Origin: Yuukianura sp. NJ FZ-2021
Lineage: Eukaryota
NCBI GenBank assembly: GCA_046563655.1
Contig: CM102284.1
Location: 7,130,001-7,194,000, forward strand
DNA length: 64,000 nt
Direction of reading: 5' to 3'
Shown: piece after piece, positions 3,501 through 56,720 of the stretch
Position numbering within the stretch: position 1 is the stretch's first letter
Layout: the number at the start of each line of letters is the position of its first letter
Translations under genes and position numbers: made by a program
Notes under the pieces: model-generated
Told to the model about the DNA's origin: nothing
The model's input: only the letters and a program-made list of their open reading frames with translations
Database searches by the model: none

Positions 3501-5557
3501 CACATTGCAAAAGTTGCAATTTAATTGTACAACTTACCCAGTTCACCTTCTTTGCAACTCTTTCATTCCAATTCCAAACTCTCCAGAACAAACAACGTTA
3601 GGCGAAACCTATGTTAGTAACCTAAAAAACGAATCACGGAAGCGGTCCAACCCCCTTCTTTTCCGTCCCGCCTGTAGTGCGATTACTTGCCAAAATTGTA
3701 GTAATTTGCAACTGGAGCAACATCTCACGACAGAAGTGATCACAAGTGCTAGTGACGTGTTTTGCAAAATCAGAAAATGGGCAGGTCATAGGGCATAATC
3801 TATTCGCTTCAAGCGTCATTTTAGAACAAGAAGCGTGCCAGGGCAGCGACGAGGAACAGCCTTCCTGGCACGTTCAAATTTTTAAATTTACGTTTTGTTT
3901 TTAATTTGGATTTGATTCAGCGCCAGAGAAAAAATTGTGTTTTTCTAACGTGAATGAAAATATTTTTGGAACATTATTTGTTGGTGTTCGGCGTTAAAAC
4001 TTGACAGCTTACAAGTTATTTTAATTTACAAAATTTGAAAAATGCGCAGCCTCGGATCCTAATCTTGGAATGACTATTAGAATCTCCAGCTTTTCTGTTT
4101 AGGAAATCCTATTTTTCGTATTGTAAATATGAAACAAAGATTTTATTTTTTTTTTTGAAATTTTTGAAAACTGAACAGAACAGCTACGTTTTCTTTCATC
4201 AGCCTTGATCTCCTTTTCAGATTTGTATTGTTTTCAAAAAAAAGTGAAAGTGATGATAGACGCATCCAGTATTTTTCCGTCCGATGTTACAAAGTCTTAT
4301 CTGAAACTGAAGTTTTGAGTCATTTAGTGCAAGTTTTAGATAAAATTGCAAATTTTGTGCAAAAGTGAAAGTTGACAACAAAAACACTGATTAAGGCGAG
4401 AAAGAGGTAAAAACATAAACACGCATGTTTTTCACTGTCTGAAAGTGACACTTTAAAACACGTCATGGATTTTGGCACGAAGACCCTGATTTTTGCAAAT
4501 TGCAAATTTGGAAAGGTCGTTAATTCTGTTACAAATTTGACTCGGTACATCTTTCAAGATCATTATACTAGGAAGCACACGGACTAGGAACAAGCGGTTG
4601 ACATGAAAGGCTTTCTTCTAGATGCTAAAATTACTAAAATACTAAAAAGATCTGAAGCGTTATCTGGTTCTTGCTAAAAGGGCTAACTTCTTTAATAGAT
4701 TTAGATACAGTATGGTTACTCTCGATTTTCGAAAGAGGGTATTTAGAACAGGGTGGTTAGGTTTTTAGTATAGGAGTTATTGGCAATAATTCAACGGTGA
4801 GTCTTTTATTTTTTGCAAAAGATAGGCCGAAGTGCGTACAGTGTTTCTTAAGCTTTAGATTTTTATAGAATAAATGGGCTTAGCACATGTCTTAGTCAAA
4901 GCATTTCAGTTTTAGGACGACCAGAACACACATCACGCAAAGAATAAAGAAGATTTGTAAGGGTTGTTCTAAATTTTTAAAGTTTTTGGAAAGTTGCAAG
5001 TTTGGCTTTTCAATTTTTTCGAACTTTGGTTTTCTTTTTTTTCGCACTTTGTCATCGTAAAGTACTTAACACTAGACAGATATCTTCAGCTTCCTTGTTA
5101 AAAACGTCATGGCTTTAATCACTCTGTGTACAATTATGTCACCAATTTGTGGTGAAAATTTACGTTACTGAGTTATGTCAACACTGTTAATCTATTCAAG
5201 TATTATGTGTTGAGGTTAGGGCGTTTATTTGCCAAAAATCTACTTGAACTGTGCTTCTTCTTCCCCTGTCTTCCAACAAATCATTTCCTTTAGCGATTGC
5301 AATTTTCAATTTCAAGTACATTAGTGAATATTACTTAGCAAACTTTGCAAGTGGAAATCCTTGGTTGCAATTTACTCGCAAATATTAACAAATTTACACT
5401 TTCTCACACAGGTCAGCATTGTGGTTCCATTTCCGTTTGCTACCAAAGGATCCAAGGACGAAGCCCACCCTGTCTATTGTTCTCGCGTCTGCCCTGAGGG
5501 CTTGGAGGCTTCATCTTCTGTCTGAAGCCTATTGCTGTAAATTAGTGGAACTACAAA

Positions 5558-7626
5558 ATGGGGATCAAAGATGACGGCCTTGACCTTCATCGAAACAGTT
5601 ACAAATACCATCAACTGGATGAGGACGCCGGAGATGAGGTCAGCAAGGGGGCAGGTACAGGCTCATTCTTCAACGGGCACGGTCCAACTCACATCATCGA
5701 CTTGGAAGATCCAGACAGTGACATGGAATTGTTTGTTCAACCAAATTCCTTCGTAAGTTCTGGTTCATCTTTTTCCGAAAAAGCTATTCATCACTGTAGT
5801 GCCGATTTTTATGAGAGGAATTTCTTCAGAATGCTAACTTTGGCAAGCTCTTATTGAAACTTCCGGCGTGCTGAAAACAGCTCTCATTTAGTAGTATATA
5901 AAAAGTGATAGATTCGTTTTTTTCTTTTCTTTTTTACAGGATGTGAACAGGAACTGGTTTCGCAAAGGCACAGAAGATTTGTTCCGAAAGTTACCTGGTG
6001 GACTGGGGCATGAACAGATTCATTGTCCGCCTCCGTTCTCAACCCAGCCAAAGTATCCAAAGGAAAAGATGAAGACGGTCATGACCTTTGGCCTCGTTCT
6101 GGTCTCCCTCTTCCTGAACTCAATTTCAATTGCCTTGACGCATGACAGAGTACCGGACGGTCCGCCACTTCCGGACGTTATGCAATTCCTTCCAGAATTT
6201 CCGCAACTCATGACGCTTCCAGACGTTCTGGTCATGTTTACTATGGTCTCTTGCTTTTTAACGGTTATCATCCATCGCTACAGGTAAATTTTTGTAAAAA
6301 GAAAAAACAGAAGTGTGACATTTTTTTTGTTAGGTTTTTTGAGAAGATTTTATAGCTACAAATACACGCCATATAAAAATTAATTAAGCTAATCCGTGGC
6401 TTTCAAGCAGAAATTAGCGGTACAAGAACTGAAAATTTTTAAAAAGGCGTTAGGAAATAGCAAACGAAAAAAGATAATTTTCACTGAAATTCTTAATATT
6501 TTTTTTTGCTTTCATCTCTGCAAATTTTACTTCGTACTGGGCTGAAAGTCGTCCCTTGGCTAAAATTTTGAACGTCGTTTTTATTTTTCAATTTTGTTTT
6601 GTTTTTCGCAGATGGATTGTCGCTCGTCGAGTGTTCTTCATGCTCTCTATGTTATACACAATGCGCTCAATAACAATGTACTCAACGGTTTTGCCAGTAG
6701 CCAACTACACTGTGTACTGTTCTCCAAAATTAAATACAACGTCAGCATCAGTAGTACTGGCTCGTGCTGCAGAACTTCTTGGAGGCGGTGGAATGCAGAT
6801 TAGTGGACAAAAGAAATCTTGTGGAGACTACATCTACAGTGGCCAGTGAGTCAGTCTCACATCTGTAACTTTTTCTTAACAGTAATCGTCAATTAACACT
6901 TCAACATTCAATTTGAAAAATTTGTACAAGTAATCCTTGACCTAATTAATTTTTCTTTTCATTTCTTTTAGTACAGTGATTCTGGTGTGTGGATACCTCA
7001 TTCTCAAGGAGTGTAAGATCCAGCTTAAATGATTTTGAAATCTGTTCTTTGTATCAAATTCAAAAGCATTTCTGAAAAGACAGATCTGGAATCTCAAAGC
7101 TAACAGATCTCTTTAAATTTCTTACAGATTCGCCTCGCAAGTTTTCAATTCTACACTGGATCTCATGGGCAATGAGCTGGTGTGGTATGAGCGTTTTACT
7201 TTTGGCACGAGGCCACTACACTATTGATGTCTTAATAGGCTACTATGCAGCTACGCGTGTCTTTTGGACATATCATTCCCTATGTAATAATCAAAATCTG
7301 AAGGTAAACCTTAATTTAAACTTAACTAACCATTATGAATTTGGCTAGGATTTCGAATTGCTCAACCTGTGCTATTTCAATTCTTTAGAGGAAATGGACA
7401 CGAGACAGTTAATTAACGGGTAGCCGTTTGTTGAGAATGAATTAATGACAATGATTTATTGGATTGTGATTGACAGACAAGGACTGAGGACAACTATCAT
7501 TCCAACGTCTGGTGGTTTCCATTGTTCCAGTACTTGGAAGGAAATGTCACAGGTCGTGTACCTCGAGAGTACTCCTTACCGTGGTCACTAGAGAAACATA
7601 AACTGAGACACTGGATATTCAGATAG
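5558..7626 (+). CDS. Sphingomyelin synthase (phosphatidylcholine:ceramide cholinephosphotransferase), SMS1/2-type without SAM domain, 379 aa; exons 5558-5752, 5940-6283, 6612-6845, 6972-7012, 7128-7303, 7477-7626
   Basis: Six GT-AG exons join in frame (1140 nt). SMS motifs present: HDRVP..PPLPD, RRVFF...Y.MR.ITM..T.LP, CGDYIYSGHT and HYTIDVLIGYYAATRVFWTYH. A 5' UTR acceptor at 5411 implies an upstream non-coding exon (candidate donor GTGAGT at 4797). Confidence 0.93.
6348..6472 (+). repeat. Dispersed repeat fragment, copy A (SMS intron 2)
   Basis: TTTATAGCTAC...ACGCCAyATAAAAATTAATT...CAGAAATTAGC...CTGAAAATTTTT...GGCGT.AGGA.ATAGCAA aligns by eye with 7946-8070. Confidence 0.7.
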
Positions 7627-11781: not shown

Positions 11782-14700
11782 TTAGGTGTCCTTGTGTACG
11801 ACAGCATTGAAGGTCAAGTCATTCTTGATCCAAAGCACGACTTCCAAGTCTTCCTCGACACGTTCGGTAGGATCCAGCTGAAACAAATATAGGTAATTCT
11901 CGTACAGAGTTAGAAAATAACGAAAAACTACTTCGTAGCCGGTCTTAAAAAAATTACGAATAACGTCTGGCTTTAAAGCTTACAAACTCCAGTTGCATAG
12001 GTTCATTAATATATTCCGAAACGTCTCCAGTTACTTCCATGCCTTCAACCGGTTGTAACTTAGGCACCTTCACGTTCAATCCAAGGACAGGAACCTGCCA
12101 AAAAACGAAACCGGAAAATCGGTGCTAATATTGAATTTGAAATTGAAATAAAATATGTCCGAATGCTTTCAACCGGTTGTAAAGTTAGTAAAGCACTTAC
12201 AGCGATGATACTGGCATTCGGAATATACAAATTCTCGAATTTGTGCTCCGCCTTGTCACCGAAGTCAATGAATTCAAGCAACGCAGTTTTCGCAGCGATG
12301 TTGACGCTCCTCACAACTCCTCGGTAATATTCCCCATCGTATGGACCCAACAGCACCTCGCCCACAATTGGAACTTCGCTAGGCTTCAATTTGTCACCTT
12401 GAAAACAAGGAACGAAACAGTTAAAACAATTTTAATTAAACTAGGATTTCTCCTGACAGAAATTGAATAAACGAGTCTTACAAGTTTGATATTGTCCAGC
12501 AATAAGGGCCTGGAGTATGGGTCCTTGCTCTTCATGATCAGCTCCAACGAGTAGGTAGCGCGTAGTATTCCAAGTAAAAGCAATGAAAAGCTCCAAGTTC
12601 TGATTGATGTTTTCAGAGTAAGAAAGGTCCTTCAGCATATACTTCACCCGAGGAAGAGGAGCTGCAGCTTCAGATGGAACAGGAGTTTTAGCTCTAGTTA
12701 CCGCTGGTCGTGAACCAGTGAATCGGGCAGACGTAGGAGTTGCCGTTGTAGACGTTACTCCACTCTTTGTCACAGGCGCAGGAGTAGCGGGTGACTTTGG
12801 CATCGTCAGTTCAGCAGCTTGAGCCTCAATTGGAGTTGGAGGAGCTGGAGCTGGGCTTGGTGGTTCGGCAGAAACCGTTACCACTGGCACTACGACTGGA
12901 GATGCTGCTACAGGCGCTGCTGGAGGACTGGGCTCAGGGGCCTTCACAACAGTTGGTGGGGGTGTTGGTACGACCGGCACCGCTACAGGTTGTACTTTCT
13001 CGACAACTGTCTTCACTGGTTCATGGACGACTTGAAACGTTCCATTACCCACATAGCTTCCAAGTTGAACCACGTACTGTCCCGCAGCAACCTGAAAAAA
13101 AGACAAGTAAATTGTTAGAGCATAGGTTTTTATATTTTACGAGAATTTTGAATGAAGATAATTGTGAAGAGAAGGTATGATCCTAGTAGTTCAGTAATCA
13201 CGTAATGCATATTTTTGTTTACCTCGCATATAGGTGTAACTGGTAGACGTTCGTCCTCGAATAGCTCTTTCAGCTTTGCTTCCGAAAACAGCTTCGACAA
13301 AACAGCGTCCCAACGGCAGTGAGAGATGAGTCGAGGGACAGGGGCAAGAACGCTTGGGAGTTCAAAGAGTAACTCCATTCCAACGGGTTCGATGTTGCCG
13401 AAGTCTGAGAAGAAGATATCTACCTGATTGGTCTGGCCTACCGTACGTCCAAGAATCTCTCCACGATAAAAATCACCACAGAACGGGCCCAAGCATAGCG
13501 TATGGGTGTCAAACTTTCGGAGTTTAACGACAGTTCCATCCGCGACGAAAGCAGCTATCTGTTCCGCCATAAGATTTGCAGCTTTATGAATATGATGTCC
13601 TTGGACGAAGAAATCACCAGGACCGTTCGCGAAAGTGCGAACAACCTGAAATCAATGAGGAATAATAAATATAACGATTAACAGCGCTATTTACGGATCA
13701 CGTTCAAATCAGCGCGAAACTCACATATTTAGGCTAAACTTACCACAGAAGGCACTCCAATTTCCAGAGGCGTCCACTGAAGGGCTGTCGTCAATCCTGC
13801 AAGAAGAGTATCCGGCTTGACTTGTATTACTTTCTTTTCAGCTGGAGCAGTTAGAACTGGCTCGATTTTTGCCGCAGGTGCAACAGGGTCTTGCTTTGGA
13901 ACAGGAGCCTCTTGAACTTTCGGAACTTTTTCCTTTACGGCCAATTCAGCGAGGGAATCTCTGGCTGCTTCAAGTACTGCTGCTGTCGCTGTCGGCACTG
14001 GCTCCTTTGCTTTGGTCGGTTGTTGTTTGACAGCATTAGCAGGAGTTGTTGAGACGATCGGAAGGTTGGTGTCCTTATCCTTTCCCTTATCAACAATATC
14101 CACATTTTCCTAAGGTTCAAATAAGAAAATTAAAAAAGCGTTTGAGCCGAGCGAAATAAGCTAAACAAAAGTGATCCATATATCTTTGCAATAATCAGAA
14201 AATTCAAGTCATGAAGGTTGAAGCCAATTTTCTCTCTTTGAAATCTCCCTTGGATTACAAAAACGAAAACCTGACTTACCCACTCAGCGTCATCATCCCC
14301 AACGGCAAATGGATTTTTGTCTTTCTTTCCATAACTTGATCCGCCACGCCGATCACGATCTGATCCACCGCCGATTGAACTTCCAGGTCCACTCCCACCA
14401 CGGCTTCCACTATTTCGATCACGATTTCCATATCCAGTATTATTTGAGCCATTGTTGTAGTTCCCTGGTCGGCGGTCCATTTCTGATCTGTTGTTGCTTA
14501 TGCCATTGGCGCGTCCCATGGACCTACTGTCTCCAGATCCCCCTCTGCTCTGTCCTTGTTCTCGATCTCGAGACTGGAAGTTTCGAGGACCATTCTGGTA
14601 GTCATTGGCAAGCGACATCGAAGAGCTAAATGAGCCTCTCAGTGCATCCTGTTGCATTGGAGGCACTCCAAAACCACCGTATTGGGCTGGTGATATTCCC

Positions 14701-15954
14701 GTTAGTTGTTGGCTGGAATTGGGCATCCCAGACAGGAGTGGAGGAGTCGGAAGTAACGAGGCCGATAGCTGAGGCTTGATGTCTTCCTTCTCTTGGATAC
14801 TAAAACAACATGATTGAAATGTACGTAAACTCGACATTTTTTGCATCAAACAAGATTTTATAAATGGATTTGATCGGCTAATCGGCTTTCGACATTTTAA
14901 TGTACTTACGTTGGAAGACATCCAGCATGTTCGTCCATACATGACGCAGCGCAGAAAACTAATTCTTTTTTGGTCCTACTTTGATAACCGAAGTGCTGAT
15001 GGCACCCTGCGCATTCTAGGCTCCTAAAGTTCTTCAAAAGATCATCAGGACTCAATTTGGAAACCATGTTTGTTGGGATCTTCCTACTGTCTTTCTGTTG
15101 GTTGGTTCCAAGATGTGTGGATGATCTGAAATCATAAAGAAAATGTAAATTAAAAAAACAAGAGAACAAGACGGTTCAACATCAACTTATCATAAACCAA
15201 CCACCAAAAACCTGGAAATCATAAACCTGGCTTATAATTACAGACTCTTTCTACGCTTAGGTATAATTTCAATTGGCAGTAGCAATTGAAGAACAACAAC
15301 CCCCAATTGAATACCTTAGGAGCAAAATATGTAAAAAACGAACATTCGAACGAAAGTGTACATATGCTAATTAGTCGCATTTGCCGCAAAACCTGACTGC
15401 TTTAACAACTTTGAACTTTACCCTTGGTGCTGTTGATTTAGTTGCATGTTGTTTTGCAAGTAGCTCTGATTCTGATAGTTCGGTGGAACGGAATTTGGCC
15501 TAACATTATTAGAGGACACTGATCCAGAAGCTAGTTTTGAGGTCGAGGCTGACCTAGATCCAGTTACCCCTAAACCTGGTGACGTGTAACTGTCATAAAC
15601 CGATTGTCTGGGCACAAGATTCGTTTCGTCACTTTGGTACCCTTGTTGAAACTTTTGCATATTAGCGGAACTAGGGTATTGTTGTGGATGCATCTGCATC
15701 CGTTGTGACTGCATGACAGTACCCAGTAGCTGTTGGATTTGATCAACACTACCCTGTTCCTGCTGCTGACGAGCATTAGTTGCATACGACACAGGCGAAG
15801 TACTGTTGTAATTAGTTGAACGATATTGGTTCTGGTTCTGCTGACGACTATTTGACCTGTTGTTTGTCTGATCGGATCTCCCTTGACCTCCTTGATGAGA
15901 ACGACCTCCAGAAGATGACCCTTCCGAACCTCTCTTTTTCTGCTGGTTGTACAT
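11782..15954 (-). CDS. Tudor-domain protein (~1023 aa): Q/N/S-rich N-terminus, degenerate MYND/FCS-like Cys cluster, RG-rich region, two extended Tudor domains; TDRD1/Vreteno-like
   Basis: Nine GT-AG exons join in frame (3072 nt): 15954-15422, 15125-14910, 14799-14280, 14109-13744, 13645-13223, 13091-12482, 12397-12201, 12094-11984, 11877-11782. Tudor cores are LCLGPFCGDFYRGEI...IFFSDFGNIEPV and VLLGPYDGEYYRGVV...LEFIDFGDKAEH; the Cys cluster is CAGC-x16-CAASCMDEHAGC. Orthology not established. Confidence 0.85.
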
Positions 15955-16018
15955 TATAAGTTGAACTTAAAAAACTTCAACAATCGAAATACTCTTACTT
16001 TGTATTCAATTGCTGAAC

Positions 16019-42200: not shown

Positions 42201-45200
42201 ACTGACTCGTCCCTTTCACCATTTCATTTTCCCTCCACCACAACTTTCTCTTTTGTTTTTGTTTTTCGCTATAAAAGTATAAAAGTAAAATCGATGATTT
42301 TTCATCAGGCTAAAATCCCTTTTGTGTTTAAGGGCTTCTGCCAGGAGTTGCCTGGAAAGTCATTCTCGGTCGTCAGTCAAGAGACAGCCTCCACAATGTC
42401 ATTCACTGTCTCGCCCAAACTCACTTTCCCTTTCACACGTTCACGCCAATGTTCTCCATCATACCCCACCACCCTCCAGGAATTGGCAATAACCAGGCCC
42501 CTGCCAAACACAATGGAAACCAATTGTCATCCGCACATCCTTCCCCCTTCTCCACTTTCACCGCCGCCCATCACTCTCCCACGCCAGAAAAGATGAATAC
42601 GGCCTTTTACGCAAATTATTCCACAAACATTTTAGCAAAGTGCTAAAAAAAGTTAAAAACCGACGCAACCCAGCCCACTTTGCAGTTGAGCTCACAAAAT
42701 TACGAAACATTGTTTGTACCTGCAAAAACAGTCAAGTTCGAACTGGCTGTCACTGGATCGCCAACTCCATTTTCCGCCAAACATTCATAAGTTGCATCGT
42801 CCCGTAAATGCCGAATTGGTTCTATCCGAAGCATCGACACTCCCGCGAAATTTTGAATTTGAATCCTAGAGTGTACGCTTGTCAACTTCTTTCCATTTTT
42901 CCGCCAGTGAACTGAAAATACAGAAATATTTCAATACTGTGCTCTTAGTATTTTTCAGTTTAATTTTGTCGATTGAATTCGTCACCAAAATTCAGATACA
43001 AAACCAATTGATTCAGAACTTTAATGAATGTTTTATTTTGAGACTTCCAAAACTCATGCAAAATTCACAATTTCCAAAAAGATTTTTATGCAAAATTAAG
43101 TTCGAAGGTTTGAAAATATTAAACTAACCTTGTGGCGGTGGATCACCAGTGACACGGCAGTAGAATGTCGCAATTGATCCAACACGAACCCGTTGATCCT
43201 TTGGTCTCTCCACTATTTGCGGCGGATCTGAAATTCACAAAAACAAAATTGTTAGTTACTCCTTCCACTTTCTATTTTTCGTGTCCCAATTTCACGTCGA
43301 TTTTTAGCAAATCCGACTCGGCCCGACGAATCGCTTCCATCATCAGTTGAGCCGAAAATTGCATTCCTTAACACTAAAATCATTATTGACTCTTCACTCA
43401 CGCGTCAAATACTGAATGTATGGGTAGAGAGCAGAGAAGTTTGAACCTACAGGGAGGAATGACATTTAGACTTTCACCTCAGTCCAACTGCTTTCTCCTG
43501 AACCCTTGACAAAACCAGGAAGAGAAAGGAAAGAACAAGATCATCAACCCAACCTCACTCAATCTCCAAAAGTAGGCTAAAAATCCCAAAGTCTGTTCAT
43601 AGCCTGGGATTTTTAGTGTAGGTAGGATAGTTACTCCCTCCATGTCCACATCATCCCAGCGGATGGAAGAAGAAGGCTTAAACCCCACCATCATTTCTCA
43701 TCCGTCTCTAAATCCAGCTCCACCACCACACAAAATGCTTCCACATCATAACTCAGACGAGGAATATCCGAGGACTTGAGAGGCATATCAATAAGCAAAA
43801 GACCATCAAGCATGAACCTACACAACACAATCTCAGGATAATCTTTACTTTCTCCTAAATACGAGAAGGGAGATAAGCAAAAGGCTTCTATACTTCCACT
43901 TTCCCCGCCAAATGATCTTGTTTAGAATACCACTTTTAGTACACCGAAATTTCAGTCTTACGTTAGATCTAAAACCATTATTACCCACATAAACAAAAAC
44001 TATAAAATAGAAAACAACAACAAAAAAGTGAAAAAAAAACTTGTAAACACAATTTGCAATTCTAAAGGTCAATTCTCAGAAATAATTTACGCGAGAAACA
44101 GGAATTCTAGGAACGTGCGAACTGTGGCGTGCGCAGGTTGGGGAGATTTTGAGCTCATTAACACTGCACCATACATTCGAACAGGTGAGAACCAGTTACT
44201 AAAATTAACGTTAAACCTCCATTTGACGATAATCATTAATACACATCATCATCATGATGCGCTGAGGGCTGTTTACAAACACATTGCCTAAACAATATTA
44301 GCATGCATTATGCAATTCCAAGGACCGGAAAATTTCACAAAATTGACAATTCAAAAACAAAAATAAAAAACATTACCAAGTGTGACGCACACAAGGAAAA
44401 CCTGTTTTTTGAATTCTGAGTATTGGAGGTTCCTCTTCCAAGAAATCTTAAGGGAAAGAAGCGGTTTCCTAACATCCTTCCAAAATTAACAAAACATTGT
44501 ACGCCCAAGTATCTCTCCATTTGGTATAAAACTACCGGCTTCGAGCCATGTAAATCAGTACGAAAATTACTTTCGAAAACCAAACTTCTCTGAAAAACCA
44601 AAACTCGCGTCCACTTCAACAAAATGGCTTCAAAACTTTTCGTCTTCTTGGCCGTCTTGGTCTGCGTTGCTGTTGTGGCCATCGGTAAGTTACTTTGTAT
44701 TAAGCTAAATTACAAACTTCAAAATCTCTAATTCTAGAAATGGTTTTTAAAAAACAAAAATATTTCCAATATTTCCAGGAGTCACTGAGGCCCAATCCTA
44801 CCACGGACCGTGCAGTGTTGACTGCGGTCGTAGTGCAGCGGAGATCTCCCAATGCTGTCGGGCTCATGGCAATAGCGGCGGATACTGCCGTGGTTCTTCA
44901 GCCTACTGTTACTGATCATAACTTCAAAACATCAAACTTCCTACCTCTTATCCTATTGTTCATGAACAAATAAATTGCATTTAAATTCCAAAATCTCTCG
45001 ATGCTATAAGAATTTCATTTTATTCCAAAACATTAGCCTAGAAATTATCACACCTAGAAGAGTGATGGCGCTAATCTAAGTTCTGGACTTGCTACTAACG
45101 TGGCATGTCACTTCTGTTTTTAAAATTGCAAAAAAATTTACGACACAATTCAGGGGCGCTCCACGCCCTTTGAACTTTATAATAGCCAATTGTCTTCCAC

Positions 45201-48200
45201 ATTTTCAAATACTTCGACGTCTTAACTCCAAAGTCAAGGCTACTCATAAATATTTCACAAAAAAAAATGAGAACCAAAAACCTAAGCGGTTGTGATTTTC
45301 GCAATTCATTTCAAACAACTCTTAAAAATTGGTTGGCAAAAAAAAATCCAATTGCAAAATGTCGAAATTCTCGGTTTTTTTGATCGTAGTAGCCTGCATT
45401 GCTGTTGCATTCATTGGTAAATTCATTTACAACATACGCATATTTACATTTACTTTCAATTACAAGGCAAAAGTTCATTATGTGATTTGGTCAATCATAT
45501 AGGTATCTCACAGGCTGTGTACGTTGAACCATGTAGCGTCGACTGTGACCGAAGTGCTCGAGAAATTGCTCAGTGCTGCAAGGCCCACCGTTACGACACT
45601 GGGTATTGCCGTAGTGGAAACGCCTATTGCTACTACTATACATAAGTTTTACTAATTCCAAAAAAGAATTAAATATTTATCACGTAATCGCAAAACAACT
45701 GATTTACATCAAAACCGTTGGGCCTGAAAATTTAACTTTTTGCAAATCTCAAGTCAAAAGCCCATAGCCTCTGCAAGCTCTTCTTTTTCTCATAATTTTA
45801 TTTCTAACCATTCAATAAATTTTGCCTAATCTAATTTTTTCTCCTCTACTTCCTTTCTCCGTCACTTTTTTGTTAAAAAAGAAAAGCGATATGCAAGCCA
45901 AAACCATGTTCTTTCACAAATAGGCTCCCCAACCTACCTAACAAAGGAAAGATTGCTTTCCCTGGTCCTGGAACCATGTGTACCCTTAGGAATAGAGCTC
46001 CAAGTCATTTATGCCCTTATTTCCCCAAGGGCCCACCCACCCCTTACCTCTCGTATAATCGGCTCATGAACCTAACCAAGTCTCTTCACAATCAAAATCC
46101 AAATACACTTCAATAACAACCACACTCTGCATCTACTCTCAAAATAAGTTTCACATCACCGGAAATCACATCACTTTCACTTCCCACTGCATAGTAAGAA
46201 GACAGGAAATTACGGAAGAGGAAGTGGGAATAAACAGATTTAAAGGCAAGAGACGAACACAAACCTCTGCTTTCACTCCCTCCTTTCACCAGCCACCAGC
46301 ATTCTAGTAAATAATTCCAAGTCAACAAACGCTACAGGCACCACGAGCTCTCAGGTCCACCGGGAAAACTTTTTTTAAAAAAGTCCCTCGTTCTAAAACA
46401 TGTACAGAATATTCAATTGGAATGCAGCCCCCCATGTGCTTTTGCTTTTCTAAAAAACGATTTTTCAGTATTACGATAAAAACATTTCCATTTCAATACA
46501 AAACACTTTTACTTTTGACCGAATTTCTTTTTAATCTCCTTAAAAAAACTTACTCGAGGTCGAGGTGTTGTGTTTTCATGTAAATGCTGGAACAGCTATG
46601 GCCATTTTTTTCAGTTTCCACTTTTTTTCTTGGAAATTTTTCATTACTTTACCTCAACGCTTCAAACCAAAACCAAAACTTCCTAAGAATCGAACCAACA
46701 GGTGAAAAATTAGACTTCCTCCAACTTATTTTCTACCACTTCCACAAAAATACCGCAAAAACAGTACTAGTCCGTTACATTTCATGACAAAAGCATGCAA
46801 TCCTACAAAAGTAAATTTAAAAAAAAACTCTTTCCTGTTTCTCTTAAAGTAAGGGCAGCGCCAAAGGAACTGTAATTAATGGAAATCTCAGCTCAAATTT
46901 CTTGGTTAAAAAAAAGCAGAGAAAGCACACAACGGGATATCGGTTGATTCGGAGTGTAAGTGGGAGACGAAAGACAGTTAGTGCTTTGTATCCCGCAGCC
47001 TTCGAAAAACTCAAAGCAATCCCGAATCAACTTGGATCTCCAGCAGAGCCAGCAGCAGCAGTCACCGAAAGTAGGCCTGCTGGAATCCCAAACTTATCAA
47101 AAGTCTTCCATTAGAAACCCAAAAGACACCAAACTTTTACTTTCTCCTCATGCTATCCCTGCTATTTAATTTAACACCCTCCTCCTTCCCCGTAAAACCC
47201 AAATGAAACGACACTTCAACCACCACACAACTTTAATTTTAGACACAATAATTAATTACAACTCCACCACCATCAGAGCACTTCTAATTGCAATCCACCT
47301 TACACAACAAAAAGCGTCAATTTTCACCTCAATTCTTCAATTTGCAGAAAAAAGCAGCGAAAGTCGAAAATAAATTCCTGTCATCCGAAAAATCACCGTA
47401 CACAAGTTAGCGCTCAGAAGCTTCCAAGAATTTCCGTCTACTCAACGTCCAACTTTTCGAGTTCCATCAACGCTAACATCCTCGACCTAACCAAAAAGCC
47501 TAACCACAAACTTGGAGAAAATGAAGACTGGTTCTGGAAAAGATCAAAGATTGGATGATCGAGTGAAAGTTGTGGTGACACGCTTGAGTTGATGGATCAT
47601 TTTCTCACTCTCCAGAGAGCAAAAGAGCGGCAAAAAGAGAAAGTCCCCTCATCTTTCAAATTCCAGGCCTTATGGAATGCCTAACCTTAGCTTCTCCCTT
47701 AGTCCTCCAGAATCAGACTCCGACAGAAGGAGCCACTCATCCACAAAAACCCATCAACGAACTCCACAAATCCTTTGGGAAAAAGGATTTCCAGTTCCCG
47801 CAACTCGACCAGTAGTGGACAAGCAGCCCATGTACACAAAGTAGAACAAGATTAGAAGAGTTAATCATCCAATACTGACCCAAAAGCACATCTTCCCGCC
47901 TCTGACTCATCTTCATCTCACCAACAAAAGAAACATTTCTCCAACAAAAACGTAGCCTAACTTAGAGAAAGTAGAAGAAAAGCACTAAGAACCTAACCTA
48001 ACTTTTAGAAAAGAGAAACATTTCTAATTCTGGACAGTGTATAGCTATTTTGTTACTTTCTCAAATGAACTTACACCTTCTTCCAAGTGAACTAAAAATG
48101 GGAAATGTGCCTTTCTCTTCCAATTACGACCCCATTGTGAAACCGCAATAGAAAAGTTAGTCTCCCATAAAATCCTTGGCTCTCTCTACGGCAATAGCAT

Positions 48201-51200
48201 TAGGTTAGGCACCTAACGTAACAGAAAAGAAGAAAAAGAAAAAAGAAATGAACTCAATGGATTTTCTTTTTCACATTAGAACCCTCTAACCACCGCCCCT
48301 TCATCATCCAAATAAAACTTAAAAAGCCTTGGCCAAACACCCTTCTTAAAAGGAAAAAAAAAACAATTTACTTCACTTCGAGAACCATCAGGCACCCCTA
48401 AAAACATTAACAAAAAAATCTAAGAGCGAGGGAAATTCACTCTAACAAAACTAACTTTTAGCATTCCATTTCATTTTCAATATAAAACTTTCTCTTTCCC
48501 CAACGCTTTTCACGTGATTACAAAAAAACCGTTCACTCAAGTAACTTTAACCATCTCATTCTCCAATTTTCAAAAAAATCTAGTTAGCCAGTATAAAAAC
48601 AAGTCCAGCAGAAGCAAAATTTTTTGTAACAAAGAAAAACTTAAGCCTTTAGCTCATCATTTTCCGAGTAATCAATTTCCATTTCCAAGAAAATTGTGAA
48701 TTAGCACCACCATCAGCCCTAGATTTTGCTGCTGCTCGAACTTCTTTTGAAATTAATGAGCTGCTTGTTTTTGTGCGTCCTAGCTTCAAATCCCAGAAAA
48801 TCTTTCTTGTTCGAAATCTCCTGATACCTTTTAGTAGAGCAACTCAAAATCTCCAGGTTCCCAAATTTCATGCCTGCTGAGCATCTCATTGCGTTTTATG
48901 CTGAGAGTAGCGTCTTTTGGGCAATGACATCAAAAGGACTAATCCCTTCGTCTCCCTTTCTCTGCAAATTGTTTCAAAGGAATCACAGAAAACCATAAGC
49001 TCTCTCATTCACTATCGTAGTCAAAAGGAATATTTTCCGATTAAGCTAAGCCAATGAATTGAAAAAACAAGTGGAAAATCAATTTCAACAAACAATAAAC
49101 TTCGCAAATTCATTTCTATGACCAGCGACAACTCCACTAAGCAAAGCCTAACCTAGCCTAACACATTTATATCTCACACATTATAACACATCTAAATATT
49201 TAGCATGTTTGTAAATTCCGAATATCATTTTAAGAATTTCAGATATAAAATTCTAAATTATTCAAAAACCTGCCAAAAAGTGGTCTGTGGTCACACGCTT
49301 TCTCTAGTTTTTGTAAAAAGTGATTACCTCTTCAATCATTGTCTCACATTCACAAAACCTACTTTCTGAGACTATGCTAATGTTAACGCTGAACAACATA
49401 CACGTCCAGAATCGAGGATCGAGCTGTAAGTGCCTTGACTTGAGCCTAGCAACTCCTTACTTTCTCCTTTGTGACTCAATTACATTATCCTACCACATTC
49501 TGATCCTTCCAGAAGACTCACTTCCGCTAATGGACTCCTTATAACCTCATTCCCCATGCACACAGACCCCGGCAACAGAATTCACAAAAACGTCAACTGC
49601 ACTCAACTTTCACCTACTTTCCCTCCCAACCACACTATCCAAAACCACTCTTCCAAATAACATGCAACCTAACCTGTCAACCTTCTCCTTAACATTATTC
49701 TGCTCCTCCAGTACCAGTTTTCAGTTTCATCACGACGAGGAAGCGATGAGCTCAAGCGGAGGATGGGCTTTAGACATGGAAATGACAGCCGATTACCCAG
49801 CTCCACTCCTCCACCTCCCTCCACAACTTTTTAATGTTATGACTAAGGGATCACCACTATGACTTTCTCCACAAAATAAAAAGGGCAAAGCCTCTTTTTC
49901 AAAAAAAAAATTCTCTCTTTTCCAAAAAAAAATTCTCACTTTCTCTTTCTAAGAAACCGCGCTTCTAAGTTCCAAAACGTGAAAGAAAAACTAGGAAGAA
50001 GAAGAGCAAGGTGGAAAATAATCATAAAGTGGAGCTTTCAAAAGAGCACACACTTATCGACTCTGCAGAAGGGATTCACTCTCTCTACTCTAACATATCT
50101 CTTCTATATTTCCCGCCTAACCTAACCTATAGCCTAACTTATAAAAAAAGGACCTGTATTGTAAGGGAAGCCTTTCACTCCTTTCTCCTGTCGGACCGTA
50201 AAGCCTCCTGCGGCATGCCTCCAGTATATTTCTTTACTAATCCCCGTAAACTGATCCCAGGAGACTCCCCACATTCCGCTCCACGGAAGAGGAAAAACCC
50301 ATTCCCCATCAGCCATAGTCTAAAACTCAGAACAGAGAAGGAGACATGTTTCACCTAATGAAAAAAGAACTCACACCACCATTTACTCCCCCAAAAAAGT
50401 TCAACTTTCTCCTTAAAACGCCTCTTCTCCCTTCCTTCACCAGAGATGCAAATTTTGGCGGGCTTTTACTCTCCCATTTTCCTATCCAACTCCTCAGAAG
50501 TTCTTTGCAACTTGCCTTTTAAGGTCTGGAAATGCTTTGGCCATTTACGCAAAAAGTGCTTTCACTTTTCACAAAAGACCACTTTGACCCAAATTCAAAA
50601 TTCCCGCTTGGTTTATCATAGACCGGCAAAGTCCTTTGCACTATTAATGAATATTATCTTTCTCCGATTAGACGCTCTTGCCAACACAAAAAAAACTTCC
50701 TTAACCTGGACTCAAAAGTGAACCGGGAGAAACTTTTTAAAACAAAAACGTCGGTTTTTGGCTGAGGCGGGAAAAAGTTTTTTAAACATCTTTATGACAA
50801 GCATAATTAATTAGGGTAGGTTTAGTTACTGCGGAGATAAGGAGAAACTCATCCCGGAGAAGATGAGAAGATCATATGAGGATCGACGACAAGTTCCAGC
50901 GAGAAAGCGGAGATGAGCTCACTTGATAGCGTTGCTTTAGCTTCGAAATTTCTAGCTTCAAAATTTCGCGCGGGCGGAAGAATAGAAAAAATCCCGTTTT
51001 TTTCTTTGTTCTTTTCCTTCTTCAGAAATCTGATATAACTCAGTAGTGTAACTCCCTCCAGGGAACCCCAGCCCCTGATTGGAATGGACAGACTGGCATT
51101 CTCAGGTAGAACAGAACAAAAACTTGAAAGGAAAAGAAAAAAGCCTCCTCTGCCCGTTTCCTGTGATCCGATTTCTATCCGAGTTCCAAAGGTTCCACTT

Positions 51201-54200
51201 TCAGGAAGAAAAAAGAAAGTAAGAGAAAGTCGTACTTTCCCAAGGGCCCCTTCAAAGAACCCACATTACCACATTTATTAACCAGGAAAGAATAGACTCC
51301 GCCCTGCTCCCCATCTAATTTATACTCAAACCCACACACCCACATACTCTCCACCACATTTCAACCTCGGAACAACAAAGGAACGAGAAACTACAATAAC
51401 CTAACGATAACCTAACCTAGAAACTACAATAACACAAAAAATAGGCTGACATAACTATCTTTGCTCTTAAACAGCTCCTCAAAGTCAATAGTTAACCTTA
51501 TCTTCACAAAATAACATAAACTGAATCTAACTAACTTAAACTTAAAGTTAGCCGAAGCTGTAATCCCAAAGCAATTTTTTAAAATTTACTTTGTATCAAA
51601 TTTATCAGAAAGAAAGCAAACAACTCAGAAATCCCTGATCACTTTTCTGATGTTGTTTTTGCCTTGAAATGTTAGGCACATTCCGAAATTTCGAAAACCG
51701 TCAAATCTCAAAATCTAGCGAATTAAATACTCTCGATTGCTCTCCGCCCATAACCCATTTCCTGGTCCCACGCGTCAGTCCATTTACAACTTTCCCGGTT
51801 ACACTAAAAACTTAGCCTTCCGTCTTCCAAAACCTGTCGTATTTTGGAAATGTTTTTCAAAAACCCATAAACCCAAGAAGTGAAAGTATGTCAGTTGTTT
51901 CCTTATTTCTAACTAAAAGTGAAGGTGATTTTTGAAGGTAGCAATTAGAGGCTCATAAAATGTCTCTGACAGGGACATGACCAAAACCCTGAACGAGTCC
52001 AGAAAACTCACCTGTCTCCCTGCGACGTGTACAGATTACAAAGTCCACAAACATTTCCTTCCAAGGACTTTCACTTTCTGAAACATACCCTATGCTTCCA
52101 TACAGTAACAACCTAACTATACTTCGATTCCATTTTCCACAATGGAAAACTCACTCCTGGTCATTACATGGTTCATGGACCAAGCTTCCGTGGGGTTTCG
52201 AATACCCCAAAATCTAGGCTAATGGCTTCTCCTCGCATGCAAACGAGACCTTTCACCTCCCGGGTCACCCCAACTCCTTTCTCTTTCCTAAGAATAATCA
52301 TAAGAATTACGTGACTCTGATATAACCTTAACGTTAGGCTAAGTTTTAAGCTAGGTTTTAGCATTAAGCCCTCCGTTTTCAACCTAACCAAACACCAAAA
52401 CTCCACTATTCTTACAAAACCTTAAGGAAAAAGTACAAAACAATGAGAAAGGGCAGAAGGAGGTTCTAAGGAGAAGCGCAATAAAGAAAACGAGCGTCTC
52501 CAAATTGTTTTCTCTCCATCGATCAAATTGTTAGACCATTCCGAACCTTGTTTCTTGCCATCCAGCTCAAGAGTTATCGTGTTAAGTATTGCAAAATAAA
52601 AGATTAGCAACTTGTGCACAAGAGTAAAAGAAGGAAAATACGCAAGATTTCCTTCTCTGCTCCACTTTCAAACTCTTTCAGTCACCCATAAATTTGGATT
52701 GTCCAGAACAAGCTCCAAAACTTTCTCCAAACGGGCCAAAATCCTGTGCAAAAAGCCCAATTCATGCAACTATGGTTCTTGAGAACCCAGAATGAACAAA
52801 ACTGAAAACATTTGAACACAACTGTTTCTATTGTGTCACAAAAATTCTTTACATCAAGTTTAAATAATTCTGAACTTTTAATTTCAGGAATTACACCAAA
52901 AAAAATTTAAACAAAAATTTCATCTTGAAAATTTCTAAGAACTTGGACGCTTTTACTCAAAAATTTTGAAAATAAAAAATTTTGAAAATGAAAATAACTT
53001 TTCGAATTATCTACAACACAGAAATAATTCATTTTCCAAGTTAATTACAATCCCAACTTATTTTGGATTTTTTTCCTCCTCCCAAATTGCGTTGTTCTGC
53101 AGTTTACTCTTCACAAAGCCAATTATGAATGAGAAAAGTAATTAAATTGGCACAAAAGCTAGAATGTCAACTCCCCTTCCTTCAAAACACTTCCTGCCAT
53201 AAGTCATTTCCATTCACAATGTGAATTTCACACAAAAAAAAATCGATATGCGTCGCCCCACATTCTAGTCGTACTTTTTAAGCTCTCCGTCCACGTGAGT
53301 TTACCATCAATCACTACGGATACGCAGTAAATCAAGACTTTACAGTTTGCAGTAAAAGTCGCTCAGCAAAAGCACTATTTTGTTCTAAAAAAAACTCTGT
53401 ACCTAGGAGACATGTGCTTTCTAATCTCTCTTTCTTCAGTCACTTTCACAACAACATTTTCATTTCCAACTTCCAGCGTACTCGTAAACACTTCTTACTT
53501 TCTTCTCCTTTTGTCGAAATGTGTTAATTAAAAATCCACTCTTAGTTTCTCCACTTTAATACACTTTAATAAGCACTTACTTTCAGCAGACTGCTTTTAC
53601 TTTTGGTAAACACAAAAGTAGTAAGCAAGTTCTAAGTTTCTAAATGTCAACACCAATTGTTGCCCTCATTTCACTTTCTCCCAAATTCCAAAATCCAATA
53701 ACTGTCCTTTTCCCTTATTTTCGAAATTTAGAACCAGAAAGTTCTGAGCAATTAGAATCCTAGGATCAATACTATTAGTCTCCTTTTCCCGTTTTACGTT
53801 AGAAGCACATCAGAGAAAGTCAGGACTAGAAAAGGCCAACTCCGGAATCATAATCAACGCTTTGTGATTATTAATTAAAAGACTCAGACCAATCAAAACT
53901 TGAGCCTCAAAAGGAGCCATATGGAGGAGAAATTAACTCAAAAATGAACTTTCTCCTTCCTCTCTCAATTGACACGACTTCTACTATAGTGAAAGTGTTC
54001 CCATTGAACAACAAAGGAGAAAGTATAGGCCGATAAGGAAGGAAGCAAAAGAAAGAAGAGCTAATATATTATTTCTCATCTCGGGTCCGCATCTTTCATC
54101 AGTAAATTCTTGTCGCGTTATTTTAGCTTAAAGAGGCACAAAGTGTCGACTTTTCACTCCTCGCTTTTCTTCGTCCAGAAAAAAGAGAAACCCGAAACCA

Positions 54201-56720
54201 AGGAAAAGAAGTAGGAAGACGGGAAGTCTGTCGAGAATAATAAGATTGGAGAGAACAAATGGACGAGGACTGACTCTAAATCTAGCCAAGTGTAGAAAGC
54301 AAAGGACGCAGGGTGACAAGACATTCTTCCTTTCTCCCTCTACCAACACAAGAGTCTTTGAATCTGTCAATAGACCCATTGTTTCCTCTACTTTCTAGAC
54401 AAGCGACTTGAGACCTTAGTTGATGAATCTATAAATTACCATCCACACCCTCCATCTCATCTCATTTCATTACGATTCAGCTAAATAATGCACAAACACT
54501 GAAAAGAAACAGGAGAAATGGGAAAGAAAGGGAATAAAAAGTTACCTAACCTAAACAAAATCAATGTTTTTCCTTGCTGTAATTTTGCGTGATCGATTTT
54601 TCATGTTTTTGATACGCCTTCTTGTTTTTGATTAGTCCAATCCTTAATTGTTAAGAAGAGCTTTGCTAACTAGGGTAATGAAGAAACTAGGTTTAGCGTT
54701 AGGAGAAGACACCGCAAAATAAGTTATTAGAAAGTTCCCAATTACGTTTAGACAACTTCGAAAAGAAAGTGAGTGTACTAGATGCCCCCTAAAAGTTAAA
54801 TAATGGAATCAAAACCGTAATTAACTACCTCGGTATTAGCTATAATTAACTTCACTCTAACAAGCTCTCAGTACCAATTCACTCTTATGCCTACCTGAGA
54901 AAATAAACTTTTAACTGTTTCCTCTAATTAAAACTAAAATTGGAAAATTTCGAAAAACAAAAACATCCGTGCGTTGCACAAAAGTTTTCCTAATTCTTCA
55001 CAAATACAAAAAACAACAAGTTTTTCTTTGCCAAAAGATTCTTTGCAGATCCAAAAATTTTCGGGTCAAAATTAAAGCTTTCCAAAATTAAATTTTTATT
55101 TAACTCATTGTAAATTGCACCGAAAAAAAAATTTTTTTTTGCAGGAAATGAGTGGAAATGGCTCAAGACCTCGTGAAAAGTGAAAAAGAAGGAAAGGAAA
55201 ACACAATTTTTTTTTTTGAAAAACTGTTTGAGGCTGTGGTTTCCACGGATTGAAAACTTCATTTCCATTCGACTTGAGCATATAGTTACTCCCTCCATTA
55301 TTTGTTCGCATTTCCTCTCCTCGACATTGGATTACTAGCTGTTCAAACGGAAGAAGCCTCAAGTGGAGCTCCTCTTCACACTTCCGGTTTACCCACATCT
55401 GAAAATCAAATTTCCTGCTCCTTTCACCCAACCAACAAAAAACTCTGACATTTTAAGCCTGTTGAATCCTCATTTTCATTATAATAAAAACATGAGCCAA
55501 AATTCTTGTTTCACGCCGCCTTCGCTCGCACTTTCACTTTTTCTTTTTCGCGTCCTTCGATTTCAACTGGGATGGCACCGAAAAAAGTGAATATGCCTCC
55601 AGCTCCCTGGATATTGAAACTTTAGAAACAATATTTTCTTAACAAGATCCAGCAGCATCCAGTACTTCGCGAGTAGACAAAAGCAAAAAAGCTTTCACAA
55701 GGGGCTCAAAAACAGAAGTTAGAAGTGGAGTGAGAGTAGTCGAATATAGGATTTTGAAAAACGCATATAAATAACATACTCAAATAATAAAAGCACTCCG
55801 CCAACCTCCCTCCTCCTCATCCCCCTTTCCATTTTGGTTAGGAAAACATAGAGGCTGGAGAAAGTAATTCATATTTATCTCCTCGGGTCATTCTCCCGCT
55901 CTGACGGTGAACTAAGCCTTCCACCCTACCTAACTCAACCAAACACCGAAACTAACATAAGATTTCAAAATTTTGAAAATTCTAACAAATTTTGTTTCTA
56001 GTTAACATCGATCCTCCAGTTCCATTGACTTTCACCCCTGATTACTCCAACTAATAGGCAGAAAATAGAGAGTCCTTTGACTTCATGGACATAATAAAGT
56101 ACCGCAACTCTGCATAATAACTTTGCACAAAAGATGAAATGCAGAGAAAAGAAGAAAGCTACAGCTTTCTCCATAATCCTCTTATCCTTCCATCCATCAT
56201 TCCCTCCATCTGTCAACCATCTTCCATTAAATGGATTACAGTCACAGAGTAGCAGCGGCAGTCTCCTTCAGGGAATCAAACACCAAAAGACTCAGCTTAA
56301 ATTACGCAAAAAAAAGTTTTAGCTTTTACTCAACGGGTAGCTTCAGGCGTCAGAAATTTTGAAACAAAAACTTTCAAAAAAGTTGTCATTCTATACGCCA
56401 TTTAGAAAAAAAGTCAATTCGAAATACATCGACAGAAATTGCAGAAGTTCTCCAACACTTCAATTCCTGTGCTAAACCGTTTTTTTTTAATTTTGATTTT
56501 TTAATTTTACGGCACCAAAAGAAATTGAAGCAAAATTTCTCTTGTGATTCTTTGAGTCTATCCTTTTCTCTTCCTGCTTTCACCAAGTCAAGGAGATGCA
56601 GATTTGTGGAAATTTTGAAACAGAAAAAAAGTTTTGGGACTTACCGTTTCCGAATGCCGAGGTGACTCCACAGACTAGAATGGCAAGGAGCCAGAGTCCA
56701 GTCCAGAAGCTTGGTGGCAT
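18276..56720 (-). CDS. Lar: LAR-family (type IIa) receptor protein tyrosine phosphatase, ~2070 aa: signal peptide, 3 Ig, 9 FNIII, TM, PTP D1 and D2
   Basis: 33 GT-AG exons join in frame (6213 nt): 56720-56645, 43227-43129, 42911-42720, 32003-31818, 30997-30887, 29569-29455, 29374-29217, 29002-28712, 28418-28341, 28247-27895, 27819-27669, 26950-26645, 24021-23676, 23581-23412, 23326-22890, 22808-22572, 22498-22406, 22319-22168, 22101-21864, 21764-21522, 21443-21220, 21109-20964, 20881-20823, 20724-20425, 20349-20125, 20045-19985, 19900-19683, 19614-19453, 19379-19074, 19011-18901, 18812-18743, 18665-18430, 18338-18276. Motifs: [70 protein letters not shown]. Assignment of the signal-peptide exon is the least certain part. 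Confidence 0.96.
24607..24612 (-). CDS. Lar: Candidate 6-nt Lar microexon between FNIII-4 and FNIII-5
   Basis: AAATATTCAG|CCAACA|GTAAGTGAG with a perfect donor, preceded by 269 nt with no AG on the sense strand; phase 1-1. Confidence 0.5.
25277..25306 (-). CDS. Lar: Candidate 30-nt Lar microexon (or alternative terminal exon) between FNIII-4 and FNIII-5
   Basis: TTTTACACTAG|TGCCCACCGTCTACTTTCACTTTGAAAACC|GTGTGT, preceded by 204 nt with no AG on the sense strand; phase 1-1. Confidence 0.4.
28569..28592 (-). CDS. Lar: Candidate 24-nt Lar microexon between FNIII-1 and FNIII-2 (inserts MDTPFGSS)
   Basis: Minus strand reads AATGCACGCTTCTGCAG|TGGATACACCCTTTGGAAGTTCAA|GTAAGC. Phase 1-1, matching the host intron; no stop codon. 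Confidence 0.75.
44525..44559 (+). promoter_or_regulatory. TATA box plus initiator of diapausin-like gene 1
   Basis: TATAAAA at 44525-44531 and TCAGT at 44555-44559 (30-nt spacing); the Inr ends about 65 nt before the ATG at 44624. AATAAA at 44969-44974 follows the stop codon. Confidence 0.75.
44624..44915 (+). CDS. Secreted six-cysteine diapausin-like peptide 1 (65-aa precursor); exons 44624-44684 and 44779-44915; nested antisense in a Lar intron
   Basis: [65 protein letters not shown]. Signal peptide ends in TEA; GTAAGT/TTTCCAG phase-1 intron; C-x3-C-x9-CC-x9-C-x6-C spacing with GPC, CCRAHG and YC..YC as in beetle/moth diapausin. Confidence 0.88.
45359..45645 (+). CDS. Secreted six-cysteine diapausin-like peptide 2 (66-aa precursor); exons 45359-45416 and 45503-45645; nested antisense in a Lar intron
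   Basis: [66 protein letters not shown]. Same intron position and phase, and identical Cys spacing, as peptide 1. Confidence 0.86.

Follow-up and report, generated by a model that had tools for sequence, protein, structure and literature searches.

A tandem pair of probable diapausin genes nested antisense within a Lar intron of a springtail-like hexapod

The stretch of DNA analysed here, a window of 64,000 nucleotides (nt) from Yuukianura sp. NJ FZ-2021 (assembly GCA_046563655.1, contig CM102284.1, positions 7,130,001 to 7,194,000 of the forward strand), holds two short peptide genes, designated gene A and gene B, which lie in tandem on the plus strand and are enclosed by a long intron of Lar, a receptor tyrosine phosphatase gene. 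All coordinates are positions in this 64-kb window, and the gene models were read and translated from its sequence. Gene A spans 44624-44915 and gene B spans 45359-45645, with 444 nt separating the stop codon of gene A from the ATG of gene B. The Lar gene occupies the minus strand from approximately 18282 to 56720, and the pair, which with its putative signals spans 44525-45673, lies wholly within the Lar intron and on the opposite strand. An earlier note on this DNA had claimed an antisense nesting in Lar, within the intron 43228-56644; this claim could be confirmed, the bounds of the intron being exact from the flanking Lar exons.

Both genes consist of two exons, and in both a phase-1 intron splits a glycine codon (G/GA in gene A and G/GT in gene B), after which 44 and 46 residues follow in exon 2 of gene A and gene B, respectively. 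When read without splicing, exon 1 of both genes meets a stop codon within the intron, and no upstream in-frame ATG is available to the exon-2 frame of either gene. In each gene independently, the signal peptide and the cysteine-containing domain are therefore brought together by splicing alone. The computed precursors are 65 (gene A) and 66 (gene B) amino acids (aa) long with a single terminal stop each, and the mature peptides are predicted to have 40 aa (gene A, cut after ..TEA) and 42 aa (gene B, cut after ..SQA). The N-termini are hydrophobic, as evident from a mean Kyte-Doolittle hydropathy of 3.41 over residues 5-20 in gene A and a mean hydropathy of 2.90 in gene B; judged by eye, the predicted cleavage sites have Ala in position -1 and either Thr or Ser in position -3. 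Both genes would thus encode a short secreted precursor made up of a signal peptide and a mature peptide of ~40 aa, in which the spacing of the six cysteines, C-X3-C-X9-CC-X9-C-X6-C, is identical. The exons have a guanine-plus-cytosine content (GC) of 0.56 (gene A) and 0.47 (gene B), as compared to 0.22 and 0.27 for their own introns and 0.38 for the Lar host intron. The earlier note had described two two-exon genes, each with a signal peptide, junctions at 44684/44779 and 45416/45503, a phase-1 intron at the same Gly codon, mature peptides of 40-42 aa and a shared six-cysteine spacing; the junctions were found as claimed on reading the sequence, and translation bore out the remaining features. 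A stop-to-stop open reading frame (ORF) of 124 aa (44335-44709, minus strand) runs antisense to gene A exon 1 and its upstream region; it has no Pfam match and is taken as a chance occurrence.

The exon-2 peptides of genes A and B score 30.7 and 27.7 bits, respectively, on PF08036 ('Diapausin family of antimicrobial peptide'), whose gathering score is 25. The best sequence match in the PDB is diapausin (2e2f) for both, with expectation values (E) of 3.3e-6 (A) and 5e-4 (B), and a profile built from the two sequences matches 2e2f at E 7.8e-5. The only other Pfam family listed is gamma-thionin (PF00304), with 13.2 bits for peptide A against a cut-off of 25.1; gene B has no match to it. Both window peptides also carry the six-cysteine motif published for collembolan diapausins (PMC10051947), C-X3-C-X9-14-CC-X9-11-C-X6-9-C. 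Profile, motif and similarity to a solved member thus support the membership of the predicted products of genes A and B in the diapausin family, and the assignment made in the earlier note holds for both exon-2 peptides on PF08036 and on the PDB match.

The predicted dimensions of the window peptides are those of known diapausins. Diapausins were recorded in all five Collembola species surveyed (Holacanthella, Orchesella, Sminthurus, Sinella and Anurida), with 23 genes in total; their precursors measure 63-85 aa and their mature peptides 39-64 aa, as compared to 65-66 and 40-42 aa for the window genes (PMC10051947). The available text of that survey makes no mention of introns, exons, tandem arrangement or nesting in Lar for the collembolan diapausins. 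As in the diapausin, or diapause-specific peptide, of Gastrophysa atrocyanea (2e2f), six cysteines, an Arg after the second of them and a CC(R/K)AH core are present, and these align with the window peptides. Gastrophysa diapausin, blapstin, Manduca diapausin-1 and the window peptides are all secreted peptides of 40-42 aa, secretion being predicted for the latter. The gap between the fourth and fifth cysteines is 9 residues in the window peptides and 10 in blapstin (CX3CX9CCX10CX6C; PMC10269622), and outside the core the identity to the beetle and moth members is low.

The history of the pair was elucidated by comparing the two copies. A regular expression for the collembolan diapausin motif (PMC10051947), applied to six frames of the window, gave exactly two matches, genes A and B, and none in 200 block-shuffled windows. 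No third copy or pseudogene was found in the window by a hidden Markov model (HMM) run over 2835 six-frame ORFs, where the next-best match had E 0.2; this HMM was built from an alignment that includes both window peptides, so that their own scores follow by construction. Peptides A and B share 66% identity over 38 residues, and 38 of the 63 aligned residues of the whole precursors are identical. In a codon-threaded comparison, 38% of the third codon positions are identical. The proportion of synonymous differences (pS) is 0.89, which is saturated, and that of nonsynonymous differences (pN) is 0.24 (Fisher p = 1.6e-15 on rounded counts). The introns and flanks of the two genes are no more similar to each other than shuffled controls. 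A saturated pS with a low pN, together with dissimilar introns and flanks, indicates that the duplicates are old and that both are constrained at the protein level. Genes A and B are therefore old duplicates under long-term purifying selection.

Putative regulatory and processing signals accompany the genes, and their positions are collected with those of the exons and introns in Table 1. The TATA, initiator and poly(A) labels follow the consensus motifs. From the TATA box and the initiator-like motif, a transcription start near 44557 and a 5' untranslated region of ~67 nt are predicted for gene A.

Table 1. Positions in the window of the exons, introns and putative signals of genes A and B and of the adjoining Lar features (a slash marks an exon-intron boundary)
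Feature	Position	Strand	Remarks
kB-like decamer, one mismatch	44424-44433		200 nt upstream of gene A ATG
Gene A TATAAAA box	44525-44531	+	read from sequence
Gene A TCAGT initiator-like motif	44555-44559	+	~31 nt downstream of TATAAAA
Gene A exon 1 (coding part)	44624-44684	+	ATG at 44624; predicted signal peptide, 20 codons and first base of Gly codon
Gene A intron	44685-44778	+	94 nt, GT-AG, phase 1, GC 0.22; donor G/GTAAGT, acceptor TTTCCAG/
Gene A exon 2	44779-44915	+	end of predicted signal peptide, diapausin domain (PF08036, 30.7 bits), TGA
Gene A putative AATAAA poly(A) signal	44969-44974	+	54 nt past stop codon
kB consensus GGGRNNYYCC, perfect match, GGGGCGCTCC	45153-45162	+	206 nt upstream of gene B ATG
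Gene B exon 1 (coding part)	45359-45416	+	ATG at 45359; predicted signal peptide, 19 codons and first base of Gly codon
Gene B intron	45417-45502	+	86 nt, GT-AG, phase 1, GC 0.27; donor G/GTAAAT, acceptor CATATAG/
Gene B exon 2	45503-45645	+	diapausin domain (PF08036, 27.7 bits), TAA
Gene B putative ATTAAA variant poly(A) signal	45668-45673	+	23 nt past stop codon
Lar first immunoglobulin-domain (Ig1) exon	43129-43227	-	directly downstream of host intron
Lar host intron	43228-56644	-	13,417 nt, between signal-peptide exon and first Ig exon; acceptor CAG at 43230-43228
Lar start-codon and signal-peptide exon	56645-56720	-	donor GT at 56644-56643

Relatives of the pair were sought in protein collections. 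When peptide A served as the query in a word-indexed search of 5.8 billion proteins, no candidate emerged. No relative above ~50% identity was found in two protein collections, and no protein above this level in a collection of 15 billion proteins. The lack of a near-identical match indicates that the window genes' own products are absent from those collections. The two-sequence profile was also run with HMMER on 1.84 billion representatives, where eight matches were obtained at E<=0.001. As a 40-aa peptide needs ~36 bits to reach this threshold, so few matches are a sign of low power rather than of rarity. The named matches are two proteins of the tardigrade Hypsibius exemplaris, proteins of the nematode Panagrolaimus and one protein of the fungus Ophiocordyceps, and in a Pfam scan of six of the matches, five pass PF08036. 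The nematode and tardigrade relatives belong to the same Pfam family, H. exemplaris and Panagrolaimus being among the strongest matches to the window profile. One H. exemplaris protein (P0005) passes PF08036 with 34.6 bits; the other is P0009. The fungal protein (P0010), from the ant pathogen Ophiocordyceps polyrhachis-furcata, is a 293-aa partial sequence with diapausin-like cysteine motifs which, at 21.5 bits, falls below the PF08036 cut-off. The tardigrade and fungal matches bear on the debate between horizontal transfer and ancient origin of the diapausins. For the nematodes, 116 diapausin genes have been reported, from free-living soil species (PMC10506718). Two matches are two-domain diapausins with 12 cysteines, namely P0004 (124 aa) and P0006 (105 aa, from Panagrolaimus davidi); two-domain proteins in Acrobeloides have been flagged either as annotation errors or as a new type of precursor (PMC10506718).

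A metagenome scan with alignment A3 gave 155 pattern matches, out of which six loci (L001-L006) were confirmed, and a scan with alignment A1 gave 114 pattern matches with none confirmed. The six loci carry four distinct genes, all four of which pass PF08036. Two of these loci (L004 and L005) display the plan of the window genes: a first exon of 58 nt, equal in length to that of gene B, codes for a signal peptide, has a phase-1 GT donor at its end, and is followed by an exon with the cysteine domain. Their introns measure 104 and 79 nt, the split codon is Val and not Gly, and the exon-2 peptides reach 45.7 and 51.6 bits on PF08036. Phase-1 introns just past the signal peptide are frequent in genes for secreted proteins. 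For this reason the exon-intron plan, which the predicted structures of the window genes have in common with some relatives, is supportive and not decisive. The genes on L001-L003 (one gene on three contigs with a GC of 0.28-0.30) and on L006 are intronless; the window genes thus differ from these in having two exons, as they differ from P0004 and P0006 in having one domain. On L001 the gene lies at 1155-1337, with a TATAAAA box upstream, and is also present on L002 and L003. No Lar exons were found on the six loci, whose contigs of 1.9-6.1 kb are uninformative on synteny. A tree was built from 16 diapausin domains; support is lacking for 11 of its 13 inner branches, and A and B are mutually the most similar rows (65%). 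Poor resolution was likewise noted for the family in a nematode survey (PMC10506718).

Taken together, the window very probably holds two genuine, intact, tandem diapausin genes of a springtail-like hexapod, which would be expressed as secreted peptides and most likely serve as antifungal effectors. For the pair, transcription, splicing, secretion, disulfide pattern, action against fungi and whatever link with Lar there may be are inferred, and the course of events may be outlined as follows. Each gene would be transcribed from a promoter of its own, in the direction opposite to Lar, and a single splice would remove the phase-1 intron that adjoins the signal-peptide exon at its end. The ~65-aa precursor would then enter the secretory pathway, where signal peptidase would cut co-translationally after ..TEA or ..SQA, and the released peptide of 40-42 aa would be held by three disulfides, for which the pattern of the diapausin family is C1-C3, C2-C5 and C4-C6. 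By analogy with characterized members, extracellular defence against fungi would be the most likely role, and a block of Ca2+ channels may be a further one. It is membership in the family that makes an antifungal or immune function of the window peptides the most likely one. The beetle diapausin blapstin is antifungal, with minimal inhibitory concentrations of 5.3-7 µM (PMC10269622), and both antifungal and Ca2+-channel-blocking activity have been reported for diapausin (PMC4987106, PMC10051947).

Several observations weigh against this interpretation. The gene models rest on DNA sequence, and the signal peptides are predicted from hydropathy and from a reading of the -3,-1 rule by eye. The Pfam scores exceed the cut-off by 3-6 bits only. 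The mature peptides are hardly cationic, with Lys plus Arg against Asp plus Glu numbering 3/2 in peptide A and 5/5 in peptide B; such a near-neutral charge is not typical of a membrane-active antimicrobial peptide. The kB-like sites at a nearly equal distance from both start codons (Table 1) may be read as a weak hint only of immune regulation, as the rate of such sites in the intron itself would lead one to expect, in 400 nt, 0.06 perfect matches and 0.95 matches with a single mismatch.

The predicted fold adds a further point of this kind. For peptide A, an AlphaFold2 model was computed with a seven-row alignment; its mean predicted local distance difference test score (pLDDT) is 75.5. The model displays a two-residue bridge at 6-7, two helices (residues 9-16 and 19-28) and two strands (34-37 and 40-43). 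Diapausin is described as having a pair of alpha-helices together with a beta-sheet of three strands (PMC10506718), and the model agrees with this description in the order of the secondary-structure elements, and in order only. When the model was compared with the PDB by Foldseek, however, no match reached E<=0.001, and the best 50 of the 131 matches do not include 2e2f. The top rows of these best 50 are scorpion toxins and defensins of the cysteine-stabilized alpha/beta (CS-alpha/beta) type, with template-modelling (TM) scores of 0.5-0.57 and E of 0.5-5. The earlier note had named structure prediction as a check, and here the agreement with diapausin lies in the order of the elements.

Among the alternatives, the one that survives best is that the genes are real diapausins whose main role is other than antifungal, such as Ca2+-channel block, heavy-metal tolerance or dormancy physiology, roles of the kind put forward for Orchesella cincta and the leaf beetle; it appears rather unlikely. 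In O. cincta the diapausins make up a lineage-specific family, and their expression has been linked to metal tolerance (PMC4987106) and associated with the cadmium-tolerant phenotype (PMC4987106, PMC10051947). The channel-blocking activity of the peptide (PMC4987106, PMC10051947) and the near-neutral net charge of the window peptides point in the same direction. However, the members with an activity measured in the literature consulted are all antifungal, namely blapstin and the Manduca and Gastrophysa peptides cited in PMC10269622; moreover, antifungal and other roles are not mutually exclusive, and the window sequence does not discriminate between them.

It is improbable that one or both copies are untranscribed relics, that is, pseudogenes which merely look intact. 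Gene models that rest on DNA sequence would be compatible with such relics, as would the structure of gene B, which is without a convincing TATA-plus-initiator arrangement and has the weaker acceptor CATATAG. Against this, the reading frames, start codons, splice sites and six cysteines are intact in both genes, and with a saturated pS and a pN of 0.24, unconstrained copies of such age would have decayed.

Still less probable is a recent horizontal or virus-mediated insertion of the pair into the Lar intron. A transfer of diapausins from beetles to Pristionchus, possibly via iridoviruses, has been proposed (PMC3175473), and this hypothesis for the Pristionchus diapausins also figures in PMC10506718; in addition, the GC at third codon positions is 0.57 in gene A, somewhat above the 0.43 of the Lar exons. 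Diapausins are, however, present in each of the five surveyed Collembola (PMC10051947), and no viral relative was found: a scan of IMG/VR gave 31 pattern matches with none confirmed, tblastn against phages gave none, and a fold search of BFVD gave 35 matches at E<=10 and none at E<=0.001. An iridescent-virus protein at rank 10 of the BFVD matches (E 5.4) is not a meaningful match. The spliceosomal introns, at a position common to other relatives, and the age of the duplicates also speak against insertion, as does the want of a repeat or transposon footprint, the flanks of the pair containing short low-complexity two-copy matches only.

That the peptides are CS-alpha/beta defensins or toxin-like peptides instead of diapausins is extremely unlikely, for although the leading Foldseek matches among the best 50 of 131 are of this class (TM 0.5-0.57) and charybdotoxin (E 0.07) as well as gamma-thionin (13.2 bits against 25.1) are weak matches by sequence, none of these is significant, the structural matches all have E>0.4, the adjacent CC and the absence of a C-terminal C-X-C fit the diapausin pattern and not the CS-alpha/beta one, and both peptides pass PF08036.

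The host gene is itself consistent with a springtail-like origin of the DNA. Among the matches listed for the Lar phosphatase-domain exon, the best named one is Lar of Orchesella cincta with 71% identity, as compared to 60-65% for other named insect and mite proteins, and out of eight Lar proteins tried, that of O. cincta gave the highest summed tblastn score (3484 against 3151 for the next). Ten ORFs of at least 100 aa in the Lar intron, including the 124-aa one antisense to gene A, were compared with Pfam, and none reached the gathering score. Nested genes are common in the long introns of arthropods. No sign of a function for the nesting was found, there being neither a repeat footprint nor another recognizable gene in the intron. 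On the simplest view, a long intron provides neutral space and the nesting is a side effect of this; among arthropod genomes, neither nesting nor tandem arrangement is remarkable.

The plus strand between 32000 and 64000 displays a strong and sustained asymmetry, with a GC skew of -0.13 to -0.37 and a mostly positive AT skew. This asymmetry is found where Lar, on the minus strand, has its long 5' introns, and the transcribed (coding) strand of Lar is accordingly rich in G and T. Elsewhere in the window, a sphingomyelin-synthase-like gene lies at 5546-7348 on the plus strand, for an exon of which two of five matches are named, both from springtails (Allacma fusca, 71%, and Orchesella dallaii, 57%). 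On the matches of this gene and of Lar, the window most likely belongs to a collembolan whose proteome is absent from the collection searched. A multi-exon gene at 12060-15966 on the minus strand contains, as read by eye, Tudor-like exons and low-complexity exons rich in Gln and Ser.

A wider reading, considered quite doubtful, is that the placement in Lar is not accidental and reflects a coupling of neural and immune functions conserved across springtails and, separately, that diapausins have an ancient ecdysozoan origin followed by many losses. If this were true, an old, conserved diapausin pair, with a kB-like site ~200 nt upstream of each ATG, would sit antisense in Lar's first coding intron at a distance of 1.4 kb from the Ig1 exon. 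Inducing the peptides in an immune response would then modulate the transcription of Lar or collide with it, or else neuronal transcription of Lar would silence the peptides. The tardigrade and nematode proteins as best relatives, and the phase-1 intron shared with some metagenomic relatives, would favour such an ancient origin over a transfer from beetles or viruses to nematodes. No publication linking diapausins with nested genes or with tardigrades was found in the literature searched, where only PMC3175473 combines diapausin with the word 'intron', and does so in another context.

As each of the five springtail species surveyed has diapausins (PMC10051947), genes A and B are new members of a family already documented in Collembola, and they leave the knowledge of the diapausin family and of nested genes unchanged. 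Within these bounds, two well-supported and probably unrecorded diapausin genes with exact models are added to a springtail genome. An exon-intron structure is documented in which a phase-1 intron comes after the signal-peptide exon, as in two metagenomic relatives, and which the available parts of the survey papers do not describe. The pair also provides an example of how short two-exon peptide genes in long introns escape annotation based on ORFs, and peptides A and B are candidates for antifungal testing.

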